A DNA stretch of 64,000 bases from Rhodospirillales bacterium (lineage in GTDB: Bacteria; Pseudomonadota; Alphaproteobacteria; Bin95), in NCBI GenBank assembly GCA_038143065.1, contig JAYQLI010000035.1:64001-128000 (forward strand). Direction: 5' to 3'. The translations under genes were made by a program, and so were the position numbers. Under the pieces are notes generated by a model. That model was not told the origin of the DNA and searched no databases. It saw only the letters and a program-made list of their open reading frames with translations. Of this stretch, positions 4,233 to 50,562 are shown piece by piece. The first letter of the stretch is position 1. Every line of letters begins with the position of its first letter.

Positions 4233-5932
4233 CCGAAAGCCGCTGGGGACCGGTCCACGGGCAACACGTCTACGTCTTTATTCTGGTTTTTTTCTCTTCA
4301 GTTTTGTTTTTACGCATTATTTAAATCATATGCTTGGGTTGCACTCGCTTGAGCTAATGGAGGCAGGTCGGGCACTGTTCAACGTTTTTTGGCGTTTCTT
4401 ACCTGTCGAAATCCTTTTGGCGTTATCTTTGTTATCTCACGCGCTTCTTGCTTTATTGAAGATAGCACAGTCGCGAACTTCGTCACTTTCCTTTTGGGAT
4501 GGAGCTCAGATTATTTTAGGTGTGGCAATACCTTTCCTTATTGCTGATCATATCTTTGGAACTCGAGGCTTATCGCTCAGAGATGGTCTTGATGATACAT
4601 ATACTTGGACCGTGTGGGCCCTTTGGCCAACTTCGGCTTTGATGCAGTCAATTGCCCTTTTTGTTGTATGGGTACACGGCGTTATAGGTCTTCACTTCTG
4701 GTTTCGGTTACGGAGCTGGTACTCAGCCTTTTTGCCTTACATGTTTGTGATTGCTGTGCTTTGGCCTGTAATGGCGCTTCTGGGTTTCGCCTCCGCTGGT
4801 AAAGAATTAAATTTGCTTAAGGATCAAGATGGGGTCATAGACCAAATGTTGGCCGATGTGGGTTTCCTTGGCGGAGATGCAGTAGACTGGGTTTCCTCTA
4901 TGGAACAAAACGTGATGTCCGTTGCTGCATTTTTGGTAGTGACTGTATTTTTTTGGCGGGTCTATTCTTTAAGGGCTTCAAAACAAACTTCTGGACCAGT
5001 TGTTACTTATCCCAGTGGCGAGCACATCCATATAGCTAAAGGCCTGTCTGTCCTTGAGGCCAGTCAGTTGGCCGGCATTCCACATGCCTCAGTTTGCGGG
5101 GGGGCGGGGGAGATGTTCCACTTGCAGAGTGCGCGTTTCTGCTCGAAGCGATCAACTACCATTGCCGGATGAAAGTGAGCTAAAGGTTCTAGACCGCATC
5201 AAAGCACCATCTGGTGTGCGTTTAGCTTGTCAGCTTCGCCCAACAGAAAATATCACAGTAGTTCCTCTGTTGCCTGCTAATGCATCATCCAGGGATGGGC
5301 GTGCTCGAACAGGTCTTGCTGCAGGAGCAGAGCGCGAAATAGTAATTTTATTTGCTGATATTCGCGCTTTTACAAAGCTCTCAGAAGATAAATTGCCCTT
5401 TGATGTAGTATTCCTTCTAAACCAATATTTTCGGGCTATGGGACAAGCAATCGATGATAACGGAGGCCAAGTCGATAAATTTATAGGTGATGGGATTATG
5501 GCTCTGTTTGGAATGAGGACAGACATAAGCACCGGATGCCGAGATGCTCTGGCCGCTGTCGCAGAAATGTCTAAAGTTCTTGATGGCCTGAACGAAGTCT
5601 TGGAAAATGATTTGCCAGAGCCTTTGAGGATTGGAATAGGCGTTCACGTTGGAAGCGTTATTGTAGGTGAGATGGGTTATGAAGCGACCTCGTCTATCAC
5701 AGCCATCGGAGATGCCGTCAATGTAGCCAGCCGACTCGAAACGATGAGTAAAGATTTTGAGGCAGAAGTTGTGATGTCGGCCGAAGTTATAGAAATTGCA
5801 GGTATTATTAGCGATGACCTTCGTCTCGAGAGTATTTCTGTTCGAGGCCGAGAGCAAAGTTTACAAGCAGTGGTATTCAAAAAAGGTTTTGAACTACAGC
5901 CATACTTGGAGGCATTAGACGTAAACAAGTGA
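4177..5932 (+). CDS. Membrane heme/2Fe-2S-linked class III adenylate cyclase, CyaC-type (start uncertain; frameshift in G-run near 5100)
   Basis: TM region with THYLNH, SHALL, DHIFGTR, WVHG; ferredoxin HASVCGG-GRCSTC...RLACQ; cyclase FADIRAFT, DKFIGDG, GDAVNVASRLE. Confidence 0.88.
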
Positions 5933-44449: not shown

Positions 44450-44909
44450 CAAGCATCTCCTTTGAGGTGGGGTGTAGAGAGACTTTCAAATCGACTTATC
44501 AATTGTGTAGTGAATTCAATCATTGCATTAACCTGCGCTGGGTCGAGGTCGCCGAGCACTTCTTGCCGAAGTTCAGCCGCAATAGTATCTACTTCTTGGA
44601 ATCGAGCCCGTCCGTGTTTGGTAAGGTGTATTAGGTTGGCTCGGCGGTCATCTGGATTTGGGTTGCGATCAACCAGGCCAGCTTCCTCTAACTGGTCAAT
44701 TTGGCGTACAAGTGTTGCACCTGAAATTCCCGCCCGCGCTGCAAGATCAAGCTGAGTTATTCCATCAACCTTGTCATTTAGGTGCATGAGCAAAATCCAA
44801 CGGGCTTGTGAGAGCCCAAGGGGCGCAATCTGTTGTCTAGTTCAGTCCGCCAGAGTCTTGCGAGAAGTCCAGTTTGTCTGCCCAAATTTGTTGGAGGATT
44901 GCGGGCCAT
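44449..44909 (-). CDS. MarR/SlyA-family regulator (frameshift near 44815)
   Basis: LARLWRTELDNRLRPLG/LSQARW, DQLEEAGLV, DDRRAN. Confidence 0.9.
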
Positions 44910-44929
44910 TACAGTTACTCTTTTATGAT

Positions 44930-44972
44930 CCTAATTATTAGCTACCTATATGTTAGTATCCTAATAATTAGG
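44930..44972. promoter_or_regulatory. Putative MarR/SlyA operator region
   Basis: Perfect 12-bp inverted repeat CCTAATTATTAG-N19-CTAATAATTAGG overlapping TTAG-N4-CTAA-type sites, 21 nt upstream of the MarR ATG. Confidence 0.65.
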
Positions 44973-45053
44973 GTGCAATTCAAGGAGGTCAACTCTCGCA
45001 AGCTTATTGTAGCCACTTAGTCGTTAATATGACCGCATCCTGATGCCGAGAAG

Positions 45054-45078
45054 TTTGTATGGCAGCTGCCATCACAAG
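45054..45078 (-). terminator. Hairpin downstream of the selenoprotein gene
   Basis: Perfect palindrome ATGGCAGCTGCCAT (45059-45072) with TTGT/ACAA extension; poor U-tract. Confidence 0.35.
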
Positions 45079-45098
45079 CATTCCGGGAAAAAATTATT

Positions 45099-45623
45099 TC
45101 ATTTATTCCCCGCCTGAATCCTCTCAAGAATTTTTGGCGCTGCTTCGAATGCAAGGGTCTTAAGCTCATCAGCAGTCTTATTTTGGATTGGGTGTGGCGT
45201 CCAAACAATTGCTGGAGCAAAACCCAATGCCTTACCTTGGGCTTCCGCTGCTTGTTGAAACTCCACTGTTGCTGTCGCACAGCCAGGGATCCCACGAACG
45301 TCGAGTTGGTGAATGTCATGCAAACTGCACGACGTACACGATCCTCAATCTGCTAAGGCTTCGACGACAATGTCACAACTTTCAACAATATCTTGCAGTA
45401 TAGATTCTGGTGCCGGTTTAGTATGCGTTGGCTTTTTAAATCTTATTGTTTTAACGCCTGCAGCCTGAATCAAGGGCTCTAGAGCGTCCATAAATTCATC
45501 AGAACGCTCTTTTGAGATAGATAAGAGACCGACAGTTTTTCCTGATATGTCGGGAGGAGGAGGGCGTCTTTCTCTGAGCGAAGAAGCGCTCTCTGCTGTA
45601 GGGTCTCGCATAGCATATGTCAT
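45099..45623 (-). CDS. UGSC-family selenoprotein, 174 aa, Sec at codon 93 (TGA 45347-45345)
   Basis: Two same-frame ORFs joined across one TGA: ...VVEALAD-U-GSCTSCSLHDIHQLDVRGIP...; SECIS-like hairpin follows. Confidence 0.9.
45307..45344 (-). promoter_or_regulatory. Bacterial SECIS-like hairpin
   Basis: UGA-11 nt-GUCGUGCA[GUU]UGCAUGAC; 8-bp stem with one G-U pair; G first in apical loop. Confidence 0.75.
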
Positions 45624-45627
45624 AGGT

Positions 45628-47069
45628 TCAATACTCCTCTAATGCTTGAGTTACCGGTCGAACTTCTGCATTGTTTCGTCCGCCGGTCCAACCACCAATA
45701 ATTGCTGACATCAAAGCTCCAGGCCCCCTGCTCTAACAACCAAAAGTCCGCCTGGATGAAATTTGTCGATCATCCCATTAGAGTCAGAGTACTTTTCTGC
45801 CTGAGCAGGCGTAATTCCAAGAGGGTGACCCGCACCTTCTAATATTTCTGATGTGGGACGCTTGAGAGCCTTATAAAGCCCATCTTCAATCTCTGCTCGG
45901 CCCCAACCATCTTTTCTGAAGATTTCATAGTGGTTAGGAGAAATGACTAGGATTGCATTGCCCCATCGTGCAAGTCGTGGGTGGTTAACGCTCCATAACT
46001 GCATTGCCATAGACTCACAGAGTTCTTCAGCTGTTCTACTTTTCTGGTCAACGAAGCCAGTTACGCCATCAGCATGGAATAGAGTGACCGCTGAAGCACC
46101 ACTGCTAACACCTCTTGCCTGAGCTAGTGGGATCCAATCCTCATCGCCTTCATCCTCCGCAAAGCAAAAAGTATATTTGCCAGGTTGTCCGAGGCACGCT
46201 CTGTCAATTTCTTGCGGACGACCGCCACCAACATTTCTGATAATCAATTGGAATGCACGCCCAATAGTGGCATTTGCTCGATTACCCTGGCCAAGAGCAT
46301 TTCCACCAGAATTCATGCCGATACGGCGTGAAATAGGGCCATTCACCAAGATAAGTGGGCCAGAGAATGCAAGGGTGCAAAGAAGTCCATGCATTGCAAA
46401 CTCTGGCTCAAGCGCTGCTTTCATGGCTCCAAGTAGCACAGGGAAGTATTCGGGGCGGCAGCCTGCCATAACGGCATTAACAGCAGCCTTTTCAACAGTG
46501 CAAGGAACAAGGTTTGGGGGAATTAATCCTATAATCTCGTCAGCTTTTCGGGTTGTACCCGCTAACATTCTTGCCACCCTTAAATCGGTGGGAGGTGTTA
46601 CTGGAAGGCCATCAGTCCAGCCTCGATCGAACGCTACCTCCATGGGATCATTGTCGTCATCGACTTCTATCGCGCGCGAATTAAGTACTATTTCACCTGC
46701 CTTAAGGGCTAGTCTTTCTACTGCTCCAGGGGCAACATTTAGAGCTCCGCAGCCTGGCATATTTTCAGGCATTGAAGCCCCAAGATTATCTATCCCAGTA
46801 ATTTCTCTCCAGTCGTTCTTATTCCAGCCATAGACGCGTGAAGTCTCTGTTGTTTGGTTGAATGCAATAACGGTTGGAACTATTTCAATTCTAAGCCTAT
46901 GACTTTCCAGCAATTCATCATCGTGGCGAGGGTTTAGGCCACGTGGAAACTCCGGTATGTCCTGAGTAATAACTTCAAGATCCAATCCTGCTGCACGCAT
47001 TTCCGCTAATGCAGGGACTGCTAGGCGGCACGTTGGACAATCTTCTTTAACAACCGCGACAAAACGCAT
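45628..47069 (-). CDS. Thioredoxin-like CxxC domain fused to uncharacterised domain; partner of the UGSC protein (frameshift near 45725)
   Basis: VKEDCPTC, EIVPT, PGCG linker, GWTDGLPVTPPT, NAVMAGC, GNRANATIGRA; tail GGPGALMSAIIGGW...EEY* ends 4 nt before the UGSC ATG. Confidence 0.8.
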
Positions 47070-47158
47070 TAGCTGTCCTCCTCCAGGCAACGATAGCCCC
47101 AGACGAAATGGAGCGCTACATTGTTAATGTTAACTATCAAGCGAAGCGGATAAGAAAA

Positions 47159-48427
47159 ATGGATTTTGGCTATTCAGATAAGGTGAAGCAGCTACAAGAG
47201 CGTGTTTCGGACTTTATGGCGAGGGAGATTGTTCCTCGCGATAAGGAGTGGCACGAGCTAACTGAATCCGGTGTTTTCCCTCCTGCTTTTTGTGAAGATA
47301 TTAAATCAAAAGCTAAAGCAGAGGGACTTTGGAATTTCTTCTTACCAAATCTTCCCGAAGAAGCTCCAGGTCAAGGCCTTAGCAATCTCGAGTATGCCCC
47401 GCTTGCTGAAATAATGGGTCGTATTTACTGGTCGCCCGAGATGTTCAACTGCAATGCACCGGACACGGGAAATATGGAAGTATTTCACATGTTCGGTACG
47501 CCTGAGCAGAAAGATACCTATCTGAAGCCCCTTTTAGAGGGCGAAATCCGCTCGGCTTTTTGTATGACGGAGCCTGAAGTGGCTTCCTCCGATGCCACGA
47601 ACGTCCAAACGAGAATTGAAAAGGATGGGAATGAATATGTCATAAATGGGCGTAAGTGGTTCATTACTAATGCTGAGCATCCCAACCTTGGCGTGATGAT
47701 AGTTATGGGTAAGACCGATCCGAGTGCAGAGACCCACCGTCAACAGTCACAGGTCATTGTGGATCCCAATACACCAGGTGTTTCTATCCGCAGAAATTTG
47801 CCTGTAATGCATCACATTAGCCCTGAGGGACACTGCGAGGTCGTCTTCGATAATGTCAGAGTACCGACAACTAACATCATTGCCGAAGAGGGTGATGGAT
47901 TCATGATTGCCCAGGCACGCCTAGGTCCGGGGCGGATCCACCACTGCATGCGTACCATAGGTCAGTGTGAGGTGGCTTTGGAGCTTATGATAGAACGTGG
48001 GTTGAACCGGAATACCTTCGGCAAAAGAACTATTGATCACGATACTGTAAGAGAGGCTGTAGCACTGTCGCGCCAAGAGATAGATATGGCTCGGCTCTTG
48101 GTTCTTCGTGCAGCTTGGATGATCGACACAGAAGGGCCGCGTGCCGCTCGCATGGAAGTGTCAAAGATTAAGGTAGTTGCCGCGAGACTTCAGACGACGG
48201 TCGTCAACCGCGCCATGCAAGTATTTGGTGCTATGGGCCTAACGCCTGATACTCCACTTTCATACCTTTGGACTTGGGGTAGGGCACTTCAGTTTATTGA
48301 TGGACCAGACGAAGTGCACTTGCGTACAATTGCTCGTAGCCTTGTCCGAAATCATGAAAAGAATGGTATGAGCGAGGTGATGCCTCACTTCTATCGTGTT
48401 TCAAAGGACTTCGACGAAAGTCGTTAA
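47159..48427 (+). CDS. Acyl-CoA dehydrogenase (FadE2/ACAD11-like)
   Basis: NCNAPDTGNME, MTEPEVASSDA, GRKWF, RLGPGRIHHCMR, DGPDEVH. Confidence 0.93.
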   Translation: MDFGYSDKVKQLQERVSDFMAREIVPRDKEWHELTESGVFPPAFCEDIKSKAKAEGLWNFFLPNLPEEAPGQGLSNLEYAPLAEIMGRIYWSPEMFNCNAPDTGNMEVFHMFGTPEQKDTYLKPLLEGEIRSAFCMTEPEVASSDATNVQTRIEKDGNEYVINGRKWFITNAEHPNLGVMIVMGKTDPSAETHRQQSQVIVDPNTPGVSIRRNLPVMHHISPEGHCEVVFDNVRVPTTNIIAEEGDGFMIAQARLGPGRIHHCMRTIGQCEVALELMIERGLNRNTFGKRTIDHDTVREAVALSRQEIDMARLLVLRAAWMIDTEGPRAARMEVSKIKVVAARLQTTVVNRAMQVFGAMGLTPDTPLSYLWTWGRALQFIDGPDEVHLRTIARSLVRNHEKNGMSEVMPHFYRVSKDFDESR

Positions 48428-49965: not shown

Positions 49966-50373
49966 TCAAACGTAAATTAGTTGGCCATCCTTTGCATTCG
50001 TAAGGGCTGTTGTGAGGCCAGAAGTTTGTATTTTTAAACCTTTCTTAATGCTGCCAGCAGTCATACCAGCCACGGTTAGTGCTGTATCGCAGGCTGATAT
50101 AACAACATCTAACTCACAGAGAGCGTTGAGGAGTTCGTCTGGATGAGCTGCGCCAGCCTTTTTCAATTTCAATAAATAATTTTCGCCATGTTCACCTGCA
50201 ACGGTCTGCAGGTTCTCCCAATTATCAGACTTTAAAGTTTCTACGCCTTCCATTCCAAAAAAAATGTGAACGCGGCCGTCTAGAGCGGCGTGCGAGGCTG
50301 CAAGCATTAACGCATAGTGAACCCTGTCTAGGGCCTTTGTTTGGATGACTATGGTGAGGTGGCCAAGTGGCAT
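49966..50373 (-). CDS. DsrE/DsrF-like protein
   Basis: RVHYALMLAASHAA, IFFGMEG, ISACD (Cys in the expected position). Confidence 0.75.
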   Translation of the reverse strand: MPLGHLTIVIQTKALDRVHYALMLAASHAALDGRVHIFFGMEGVETLKSDNWENLQTVAGEHGENYLLKLKKAGAAHPDELLNALCELDVVISACDTALTVAGMTAGSIKKGLKIQTSGLTTALTNAKDGQLIYV

Positions 50374-50379
50374 TAATTT

Positions 50380-50562
50380 TTAGTCTGATCTTAATTGTAG
50401 GGACGAATATTTGCTTAGTATTTGCCGCACTCGGGGCACACATTGGCCACAGGTCGGAGCACATTCATTATCTCTGTATATTTCTGATACCTTTGAGGCT
50501 CCTCTTTCTAAAGCTGCCTGGATAGCCTCTTCCTTGATGCCGTTACATATGCAAATTCGCAT
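50380..50562 (-). CDS. bfd: BFD-like [2Fe-2S] ferredoxin
   Basis: MRICICNGI...CGQC. Confidence 0.85.
   Translation of the reverse strand: MRICICNGIKEEAIQAALERGASKVSEIYRDNECAPTCGQCVPRVRQILSKYSSLQLRSD

Follow-up and report, generated by a model that had tools for sequence, protein, structure and literature searches.

The question raised by this locus is what a small selenoprotein gene and the large gene directly upstream of it do together. Both lie on the minus strand, between positions 45099 and 47069 of a 64,000-nt stretch of DNA from a Rhodospirillales bacterium (assembly GCA_038143065.1, contig JAYQLI010000035.1, positions 64,001 to 128,000), which is called the window in the following. 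The small gene belongs to the UGSC family, and the large gene combines a domain of thioredoxin (Trx) type, a short linker and a domain of about 350 amino acids (aa), which we call the partner domain. We find that UGSC and partner are a real, widely conserved and obligately linked gene pair. On balance, we read the two genes as the two parts of one thioredoxin-linked selenoenzyme, a reading based on the obligate genetic linkage, the gene fusions, the conserved residues and the predicted interface. A preliminary description, made from the sequence alone, had placed both genes correctly; the motifs it quoted, i.e. CPTC (residues 11-14), PGCG (105-108), GWTDGLPVTPPT, NAVMAGC, GNRANATIGRA and FCFAED, are all present in the translation. 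The features on which the argument rests are the following, where Sec denotes selenocysteine and SECIS a selenocysteine insertion sequence:

45628..47069, minus strand: large gene with thioredoxin-fold domain, Cys-bearing linker and partner domain of ~350 aa; 480 aa with one base restored

46785..47069, minus strand: predicted N-terminal thioredoxin-fold domain, residues 1-95, with C11-P-T-C14 (codons 47028-47039), assigned by model and structure match

46749..46751, minus strand: codon of the linker cysteine C107, motif P-G-C-G (residues 105-108), the motif being found in 77 of 80 loci

45631..46697, minus strand: partner domain, residues ~125-480, in which D153-G-L-P-x-x-P-P-T, C204, R264/N266/R271, C302 and E305 are near-invariant (alignments A2 and A3)

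45724..45728, minus strand: C-run of length 5 (G on the coding strand), one base short, which puts the last 28 codons of the large gene out of frame

45634..45639, minus strand: GAGGAG, a hexamer like a Shine-Dalgarno sequence, within the final codons of the large gene when its frame is restored

45099..45623, minus strand: gene of a 174-aa selenoprotein of the UGSC family, in which TGA 45345-45347 codes for Sec93, with matches to PF24696 and NF041046

45315..45333, minus strand: SECIS-like hairpin GUCGUGCA-GUU-UGCAUGAC, which begins 14 nt 3' of the UGA

The small gene starts with the ATG at 45623 and ends with the stop codon at 45099-45101. When its in-frame TGA is read as Sec, the product contains the sequence A-D-U-G-S-C-T-S-C, with U93, C96 and C99. 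The UGSC profile PF24696 matches this protein with 124.5 bits (cut-off 25) over profile positions 2-170 of 172, and the NCBIfam model NF041046 ('UGSC family (seleno)protein') matches it with 124.1 bits, just below the cut-off of 125, U being read as C. The small gene is thus a member of the named UGSC (seleno)protein family with a full-length profile match. Sec decoding is possible in this genome, which has selA (496 bits), an adjoining selB (435 bits) and a tRNA-Sec (71.5 bits vs a gathering score of 47) besides the SECIS-like hairpin. The hairpin was followed through 75 aligned sequences, i.e. the window, 71 Sec-form orthologs and three Cys forms: 94.5% of 600 cells are paired, both-side changes occur in two pairs, and shifting the 3' arm by 1-3 columns lets the pairing fall to 4-54%. 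The wobble bases that build the stem are absent from all three Cys-form genes, as predicted by an RNA-level constraint tied to Sec. An Rfam search of window positions 44800-47300 with E up to 1 matched no family, SECIS families included, and when the 71 nt that follow the UGA are folded, their energy (z -0.39) is by itself not significant. The 36-base stretch 45312-45347, from the Sec codon through the hairpin, is the sole match of other organisms' contigs in the public sequencing runs X1 and X6; the flanks diverge on both sides in these contigs, and the stretch is the most conserved nucleotide piece of the locus.

All five UGSC copies of this genome, four of them with TGA, adjoin or are fused with a partner-domain gene, two as single-chain fusions. 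A scan with one genome per species yielded an ortholog set of 80 loci with thioredoxin-fused orthologs, which come from Alpha-, Beta- and Gammaproteobacteria, Actinomycetota, Chloroflexota, Acidobacteriota and others. UGSC lies directly downstream and on the same strand in 76 of the 80 (71 with TGA, 3 with TGC, 2 unclear); as for the four misses, L080 and L087 end at a contig edge, and L039 and L049 have other genes at that place. Of 61 related genomes, 41 have UGSC, and exactly these 41 also have the partner; they include all 36 other genomes of the window's family, where the number of UGSC-partner pairs per genome ranges from 2 to 8. If loci are chosen through UGSC alone, a partner match is found within the 1.5-kb flanks in 29 of 30. 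UGSC exceeded its cut-off in none of 200 other genomes sampled evenly across the phylum; the system is therefore patchy in its distribution.

The partner family itself has many members: in an exhaustive phmmer search, 5426 cluster representatives matched with an E of 1e-3 or less, 1215 of them with 1e-30 or less. A Pfam scan of 57 long partner representatives detected UGSC in the same chain in 24 (5 full-length, 16 with the post-Sec half only, at the N-terminus of the chain, and 3 with the pre-Sec half only, at the C-terminus), the half-UGSC fusions being explained by gene callers that stop at the Sec codon. The remaining representatives comprise 8 with AhpC/Redoxin, 1 with the ferredoxin-thioredoxin-reductase beta domain (FeThRed_B) and 24 without a Pfam match. 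Co-occurrence and fusion of the two families had been proposed beforehand as the check to be made, and by all three counts (the same 41 of 61 genomes, 76 of 80 loci, 24 of 57 chains) the families belong together.

The cysteines of the large protein are well conserved. C11 and C14 occur in each of the 72 orthologs covering that part, C204 (codon 46458-46460) in 77 of 80 and C302 (codon 46164-46166) in 78 of 80, and the partner-domain family is marked by the motifs GW[TS]DGLPxxPPT, NAVMAGC and GNRANA..GRA. The linker motif takes the form P-G-C-G-[S/A] in 77 of the 80 loci, with a Cys codon in 73 and TGA in 4, so that all cysteines singled out in the preliminary description are conserved ones. 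The loci with a linker TGA (P-G-U-G-S) are L037, L039, L040 and L041, all betaproteobacterial metagenome-assembled genomes, with the TGA at ~4316-4318 in each; they carry an identical, hairpin-capable element, CUCGAGCC-CGGGGU-GGCCGAG, 15 nt after the TGA, and the Cys forms are without it. To judge by these sequences, the large proteins of the four loci would themselves be selenoproteins. The exchange of Sec and Cys at one position is a classic sign of a redox-active residue, and because of this exchange at the linker position we read C107 as a working member of a relay.

Residues 1-93 of the large protein are predicted to adopt a thioredoxin fold with CxxC. The AlphaFold model of the closest homolog P0002 is of high confidence (predicted local distance difference test, pLDDT, 95.9; predicted template modelling score, pTM, 0.91), and residues 1-93 match thioredoxin 6z7o_A with a VIA Z of 10.2 and a root-mean-square deviation (rmsd) of 1.6 Å over 84 aligned residues; Foldseek gives a probability of 1.0 to several thioredoxins. 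The large protein is thus like the Trx-fold fusions to client enzymes of the TlpA/ResA/CcmG type in that its residues 1-93 superpose on thioredoxins (Z 9-10, rmsd 1.6-2.4 Å) and hold a CxxC; unlike these, it has no match to the Pfam thioredoxin or redoxin profiles at E up to 0.01, although more distant relatives do match AhpC-TSA/Redoxin. From classical thioredoxin it differs by a conserved extra redox residue, C107 or Sec, after the Trx-fold domain.

The partner domain matches no Pfam or NCBIfam family. A sequence search of the PDB found no relative for the partner, for UGSC or for the GrdB/PrdB-like set; a structure search with the full model returned thioredoxins only, and the ESM Atlas returned only the partner family's own unnamed clusters, and none for UGSC when PF24696 was excluded. 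We also modelled the partner domain alone, from a stand-alone paralog in L001 (pLDDT 86.5). Two candidates were dropped, as both lie below the stated noise level: HypA, with a best VIA Z of 5.9 and an rmsd of 2.5 Å over 84 residues (48,161 representative chains searched), and class I fumarate hydratase and Toblerone-fold amidohydrolases, with a best Foldseek E of 1.2e-3 and a template modelling (TM) score of ~0.2. We claim neither a known nor a new fold for this domain.

Do the two proteins bind each other? For the complex model we took the pair of Elioraea rosea (L050), which by nature has Cys in place of Sec, supplied an alignment for each chain and ran three controls. The interaction prediction score from aligned errors (ipSAE) was 0.76 (0.76, 0.77 and 0.75 over three runs) vs 0.00 for the best control; in the calibration of the tool, 58 out of 80 solved complexes reach that mark, as do 2 out of 110 mismatched pairs, figures that are only approximate here since own alignments were used. 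At least 96% of the contacts agree between the runs, and the partner pLDDT is at least 86. Because neither protein has a sequence relative in the PDB, the score is unlikely to stem from the memory of a solved complex. On the UGSC side, the predicted interface comprises residues 1-12 with the invariant R-D-P-T stretch, residues 65-70, the Sec-equivalent loop (93-95 and 97-99) and H102; on the side of the large protein it comprises the D-G-L-P..P-P-T region, residues 180-198 just before C204, 219-230, 272-287 and the C-terminal tail, which is the piece that the frameshift removes in the window. The modelling that the preliminary description had suggested thus places the Sec loop at the interface, and the model supports, but does not prove, that UGSC binds the partner domain. 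As the natural all-Cys pair comes from a cultured organism (E. rosea PF-30), it can be directly expressed and assayed.

The preliminary description had further called the pair a compact analogue of the Grd system. GrdB carries a UxxCxxC motif and depends on reduction by thiols or thioredoxin. Aligning a diverse UGSC alignment (A8) with a GrdB/PrdB-type alignment (A7) by hhalign gave an E of 1.8e-5 and a probability of 77.9% over 101 columns, with Sec on Sec (DCGSC with NCPVC) and the following G-I-P-T strand in register. Unrelated controls gave E values of 0.32 (A8 vs A5) and 0.26 (partner A3 vs A7), and tests of single-sequence UGSC vs the GrdB/PrdB type gave 0.052 and 0.25. A8 vs A3 (E 4.5e-4) could not serve as a control, since three of the partner proteins in A3 end in a UGSC piece; A5 took the place of A3. 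This moderate evidence would make UGSC a minimal relative of the part of selenoprotein B that bears the Sec, although UGSC does not belong to the selenoprotein B family itself. Like GrdB, GrdF, GrdH and PrdB (PF07355), it has its Sec in a U-x-x-C at a helix start, followed by the G-I-P-T strand. Unlike them, it has 174 aa only and is without their N-terminal half, its partner is an unrelated 350-aa domain not recognised as a pyruvoyl proenzyme, and its hosts are aerobic aquatic Proteobacteria and Actinomycetota instead of amino-acid-fermenting clostridia. The analogy is therefore reasonable as far as the C-terminal half of UGSC is concerned, but it does not extend to the partner, which is unrelated to GrdB/PrdB. 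The same genome also has two PF07355 genes with an in-frame TGA, L103 (G000:C35:2091375-2094773) and L104 (G000:C35:1679835-1683230), with the Sec motifs ..V-U-P-N-C.. and ..N-U-P-V-C.., whose database homologs are named 'D-proline reductase PrdB' or 'selenoprotein B'.

How might such an enzyme work? UGSC, with a reactive Sec in U93-G-S-C96-T-S-C99 and a domain distantly like the Sec region of GrdB/PrdB, would use the Sec loop and the invariant R-D-P-T strand at its N-terminus to dock onto the partner domain of ~350 aa, whose conserved pocket (D153-G-L-P..P-P-T, C204, R264/N266/R271, C302, E305) may bind the substrate. The Sec would attack the bound substrate and would end as a selenenyl-sulfide with C96, C99 or a Cys of the partner. 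Its re-reduction would then run through an in-built relay, from the linker Cys107 (Sec in some orthologs) to the CPTC of the Trx-fold domain, which in turn would draw electrons from the cellular thioredoxin reductase. A flow from NAD(P)H or ferredoxin via a Trx-type module to Sec is suggested by a paralogous operon of this genome (L145 5573-9095, G000:C35:1740572-1744094), in which UGSC is followed by two partner genes and then by a 300-aa Pyr_redox_2 flavoprotein of thioredoxin-reductase size, together with the fusions to thioredoxin, AhpC/Redoxin and FeThRed_B. We infer the direction of electron flow, a reductive-cleavage chemistry like that of GrdB/PrdB and the existence of a small-molecule substrate. 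A bolder version, which we hold to be conceivable but doubtful, would make UGSC and partner a new and very widespread class of thioredoxin-driven selenoenzymes in aerobic aquatic bacteria, a minimal cousin of clostridial selenoprotein B in which a catalytic subunit without a solved relative replaces the pyruvoyl proenzyme, the paralogs cleave osmolytes, methylated amines or organosulfur compounds, and the C/U-G-S arm of the linker serves as a second built-in selenol/thiol shuttle.

A number of observations weigh against reading the pair as one thioredoxin-linked selenoenzyme with Grd-like chemistry. The linkage counts include kin genomes, which are not independent, so that they overstate the support, though the pattern itself is unambiguous. 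The four Sec-linker loci are related to each other as well, and one event may account for all of them. Two of the five UGSC paralogs of this genome lack the third Cys of UxxCxxC; in the wider family only U-x-x-C is general, the third Cys being invariant in the subfamily that follows the thioredoxin-fused partners. The thiol/selenol relay of the preliminary description is supported by the conserved Cys residues, the Cys/Sec exchange and the predicted interface, but the thioredoxin domain and C107 are not among the named interface residues in the complex model. The likeness to GrdB/PrdB has an hhalign probability of only 78% and concerns the C-terminal half of UGSC alone; PF07355 (GRDB) matches none of the five UGSC paralogs at E up to 10, and the partner shows no likeness to the GrdB/PrdB-type profile (the E of 0.26 given above). 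Neither PF09338 (the pyruvoyl proenzyme GrdE/PrdA) nor PF04723 (GrdA) matches in this genome, the control genomes being silent for both profiles as well; a Grd-like mechanism would, as far as the sequences tell, have to work here without its usual carbonyl cofactor. Besides UGSC, no neighbour occurs in more than 12 of the 80 loci and none gives a clue to the substrate, in agreement with the earlier statement that the substrate cannot be read from the sequence. Finally, the large gene is broken in the window as sequenced.

Other explanations would assign the pair a different task. It might act as an antioxidant or as a thiol-disulfide oxidoreductase of a general kind, for instance a peroxidase or a reductase of protein disulfides or sulfoxides, in which the Sec meets the oxidant directly, the partner scaffolds or tunes it, and no C-N, C-S or C-O bond of a metabolite is cleaved. 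Indeed, the fused domains are all thiol-redox modules (the Trx fold here, AhpC/Redoxin in 8 of 57 and FeThRed_B in 1 of 57), and the available excerpts of PMC2398784 and PMC13188914 class UGSC among the redox selenoproteins with a Trx-like fold and without known function. However, a scaffold would need neither a domain of 350 aa in which Asp, Arg, Glu and Cys residues are invariant nor a linkage that is obligate and 1:1, UGSC aligns with GrdB/PrdB and not with peroxiredoxins, and the 2-8 paralogous pairs per genome stand in different catabolic-looking contexts. Such varied contexts and numbers fit different substrates better than one housekeeping antioxidant, as we infer, and we regard this explanation as rather unlikely. 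A role of the pair in the trafficking, salvage or detoxification of selenium, of sulfur or of soft metals or metalloids, and not in a metabolic reduction, is very improbable in our view. selA and/or selB adjoin the pair in 10 of 80 loci, several conserved Cys/Sec residues are close in sequence, and there are weak echoes of PurM-type folds (VIA Z of 4.6 for ThiL and 3.1 for HypE; Foldseek E of 0.015 for SelD); yet all these structural scores are below the tool's stated noise level, the selAB adjacency is limited to few lineages, three orthologs use Cys instead of Sec, and no metal-binding family was matched.

A different kind of objection concerns the local copy only: the large gene could be truly frameshifted and a decaying pseudogene, with another pair of the genome doing the work. 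From its ATG at 47069 (MRFVAVVKEDCPTC...) the open reading frame (ORF) as sequenced has 452 codons and ends with TGA 45711-45713, 87 nt upstream of the selenoprotein ATG. With one base added to the C-run at 45724-45728, the protein reads ...GGPGALMSAIIGGWTGGRNNAEVRPVTQALEEY and stops at 45628-45630, 4 nt before the UGSC ATG. More than 8000 database homologs have lengths of 474-482 aa. The closest, P0002, is 97% identical, has 480 aa and ends in ...VVRAGGPGALMSAIIGGWTGGRNNAEVRPVTRALEEY; this tail is encoded in the next frame of the window, with Q instead of R at one place. The 'about 480 aa' and the end 4 nt before the ATG in the preliminary description are thus true of the natural, frame-restored form but not of the letters of the window (452 aa, 87 nt), the frameshift having gone unnoticed; the GAGGAG Shine-Dalgarno hexamer that it placed within the end of the large gene is present at 45634-45639. 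A pseudogene would account for the 5 C where 6 are needed, and the lost 28-residue tail is conserved among the homologs and in contact with UGSC in the model. To check the frameshift, we compared contigs from four public runs over the region; three of these are DNA runs, from three studies (estuary, sediment and marine). Contrary to decay, a C is inserted behind 45723 in all three, X1, X5 and X6 (one contig each, with depths of 7.5, 8.9 and 4.3), in contigs otherwise at least 99% alike to the window on long pieces, and no further damage is seen across 1.4 kb. The RNA contigs (X15) span most of both genes but not 45689-45759, and so give no evidence of co-transcription. In assembly G000, other genes are split as well, namely a partner paralog (L002; L105/L112), Ldh_2 (L145 11119-12107), a GHMP kinase (L146 5547-6469) and UbiD (L147 3820-4731), which suggests single-base indel errors across the assembly. 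Because of the extra C in the DNA runs of three studies and of these other split genes, an error of the assembly is the most likely cause of the frameshift, the natural gene product having 480 aa; a true pseudogene is quite improbable.

How much of this was known? The preliminary description had taken the system for undescribed, which does not hold for UGSC: the available excerpts of PMC1976440 (2007) list it as a selenoprotein without known function, and those of PMC2398784 (2008), like the former on the 'UGSC-containing protein' of Zhang and Gladyshev, count 255 Sec and 21 Cys forms in the Global Ocean Sampling (GOS) data (Table 2), suggest a Trx-like fold and show UGSC fused to a conserved domain 'Unknown_1' (Fig. 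S1A), which may be the partner domain. UGSC is, according to the same excerpts of PMC2398784, among the most numerous selenoprotein families of ocean and freshwater metagenomes. It is still given without a function in the portions available of two reviews, of 2022 (PMC9312934) and 2026 (PMC13188914), and the accessible parts of the literature found by the UGSC family names and accessions contain no function and no partner beyond the 'UGSC/Unknown_1' fusion. The family has thus been named since 2007-2008, and the two-part enzyme, the partner domain and the chemistry are not described in searchable papers. What has been an orphan for 20 years can now be treated as a defined two-protein system, with an obligate and often fused partner, a probable in-built Trx relay with a Sec/Cys-exchangeable linker, and a Sec domain that appears distantly like GrdB/PrdB.

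The surroundings of the pair differ from locus to locus. The acyl-CoA (coenzyme A) dehydrogenase, MarR, HlyD-type and major facilitator superfamily (MFS) genes are present in the window as described earlier, but as a hint at function they fail, since this context is local: an acyl-CoA dehydrogenase like that of the window is found in 2 of 80 loci, MarR and a PaiB-like gene in 0 of 80 each, and the pump was not seen. An acyl-CoA-type neighbour of any kind occurs in 23 of 80 loci, which we judged close to background and did not use as a substrate clue. The loci with selA and/or selB within the 4-kb flanks (10 of 80) are L043, L045, L047, L051, L053, L055, L059, L084, L088 and L098. Other recurrent neighbours are a flavin reductase (9 of 80, all Actinomycetota), a thiolase (8 of 80) and a family III CoA-transferase (6 of 80). 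The palindrome at 47118-47130, also pointed out in the preliminary description, is present at chance level, as a match with up to one mismatch was found in 10 of 100 shuffles; a scan for promoters and terminators in turn yielded no more sites than in shuffles.

Within this genome, the neighbours of the pairs are equally varied and include MFS transporters, a LysR regulator, Rieske dioxygenases and a cyclase. Downstream of the L145 operon there are CofC-like and luciferase-like monooxygenase genes. A fused UGSC-partner paralog (L147 6352-7998, G000:C36) is without U/C-x-x-C (G-I-C-D-G-G-T-A-A-S) and may be a redox-dead variant; a putative cyclase (PF04199) follows directly after it. A seventh partner-domain gene of 393 aa (L148 6466-7644, G000:C35:2590465-2591643) has no adjoining UGSC; efflux genes of HlyD and AcrB type lie downstream of it, and Rieske dioxygenase genes are oriented divergently to it. 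In the window itself, at 49966-50562, a DsrE/DsrF-like protein of 135 aa is encoded beside a Cys-rich ORF of 60 aa (C-x-C...C-x-x-C-x-x-C), which may be a small iron-sulfur or Bfd-type protein.

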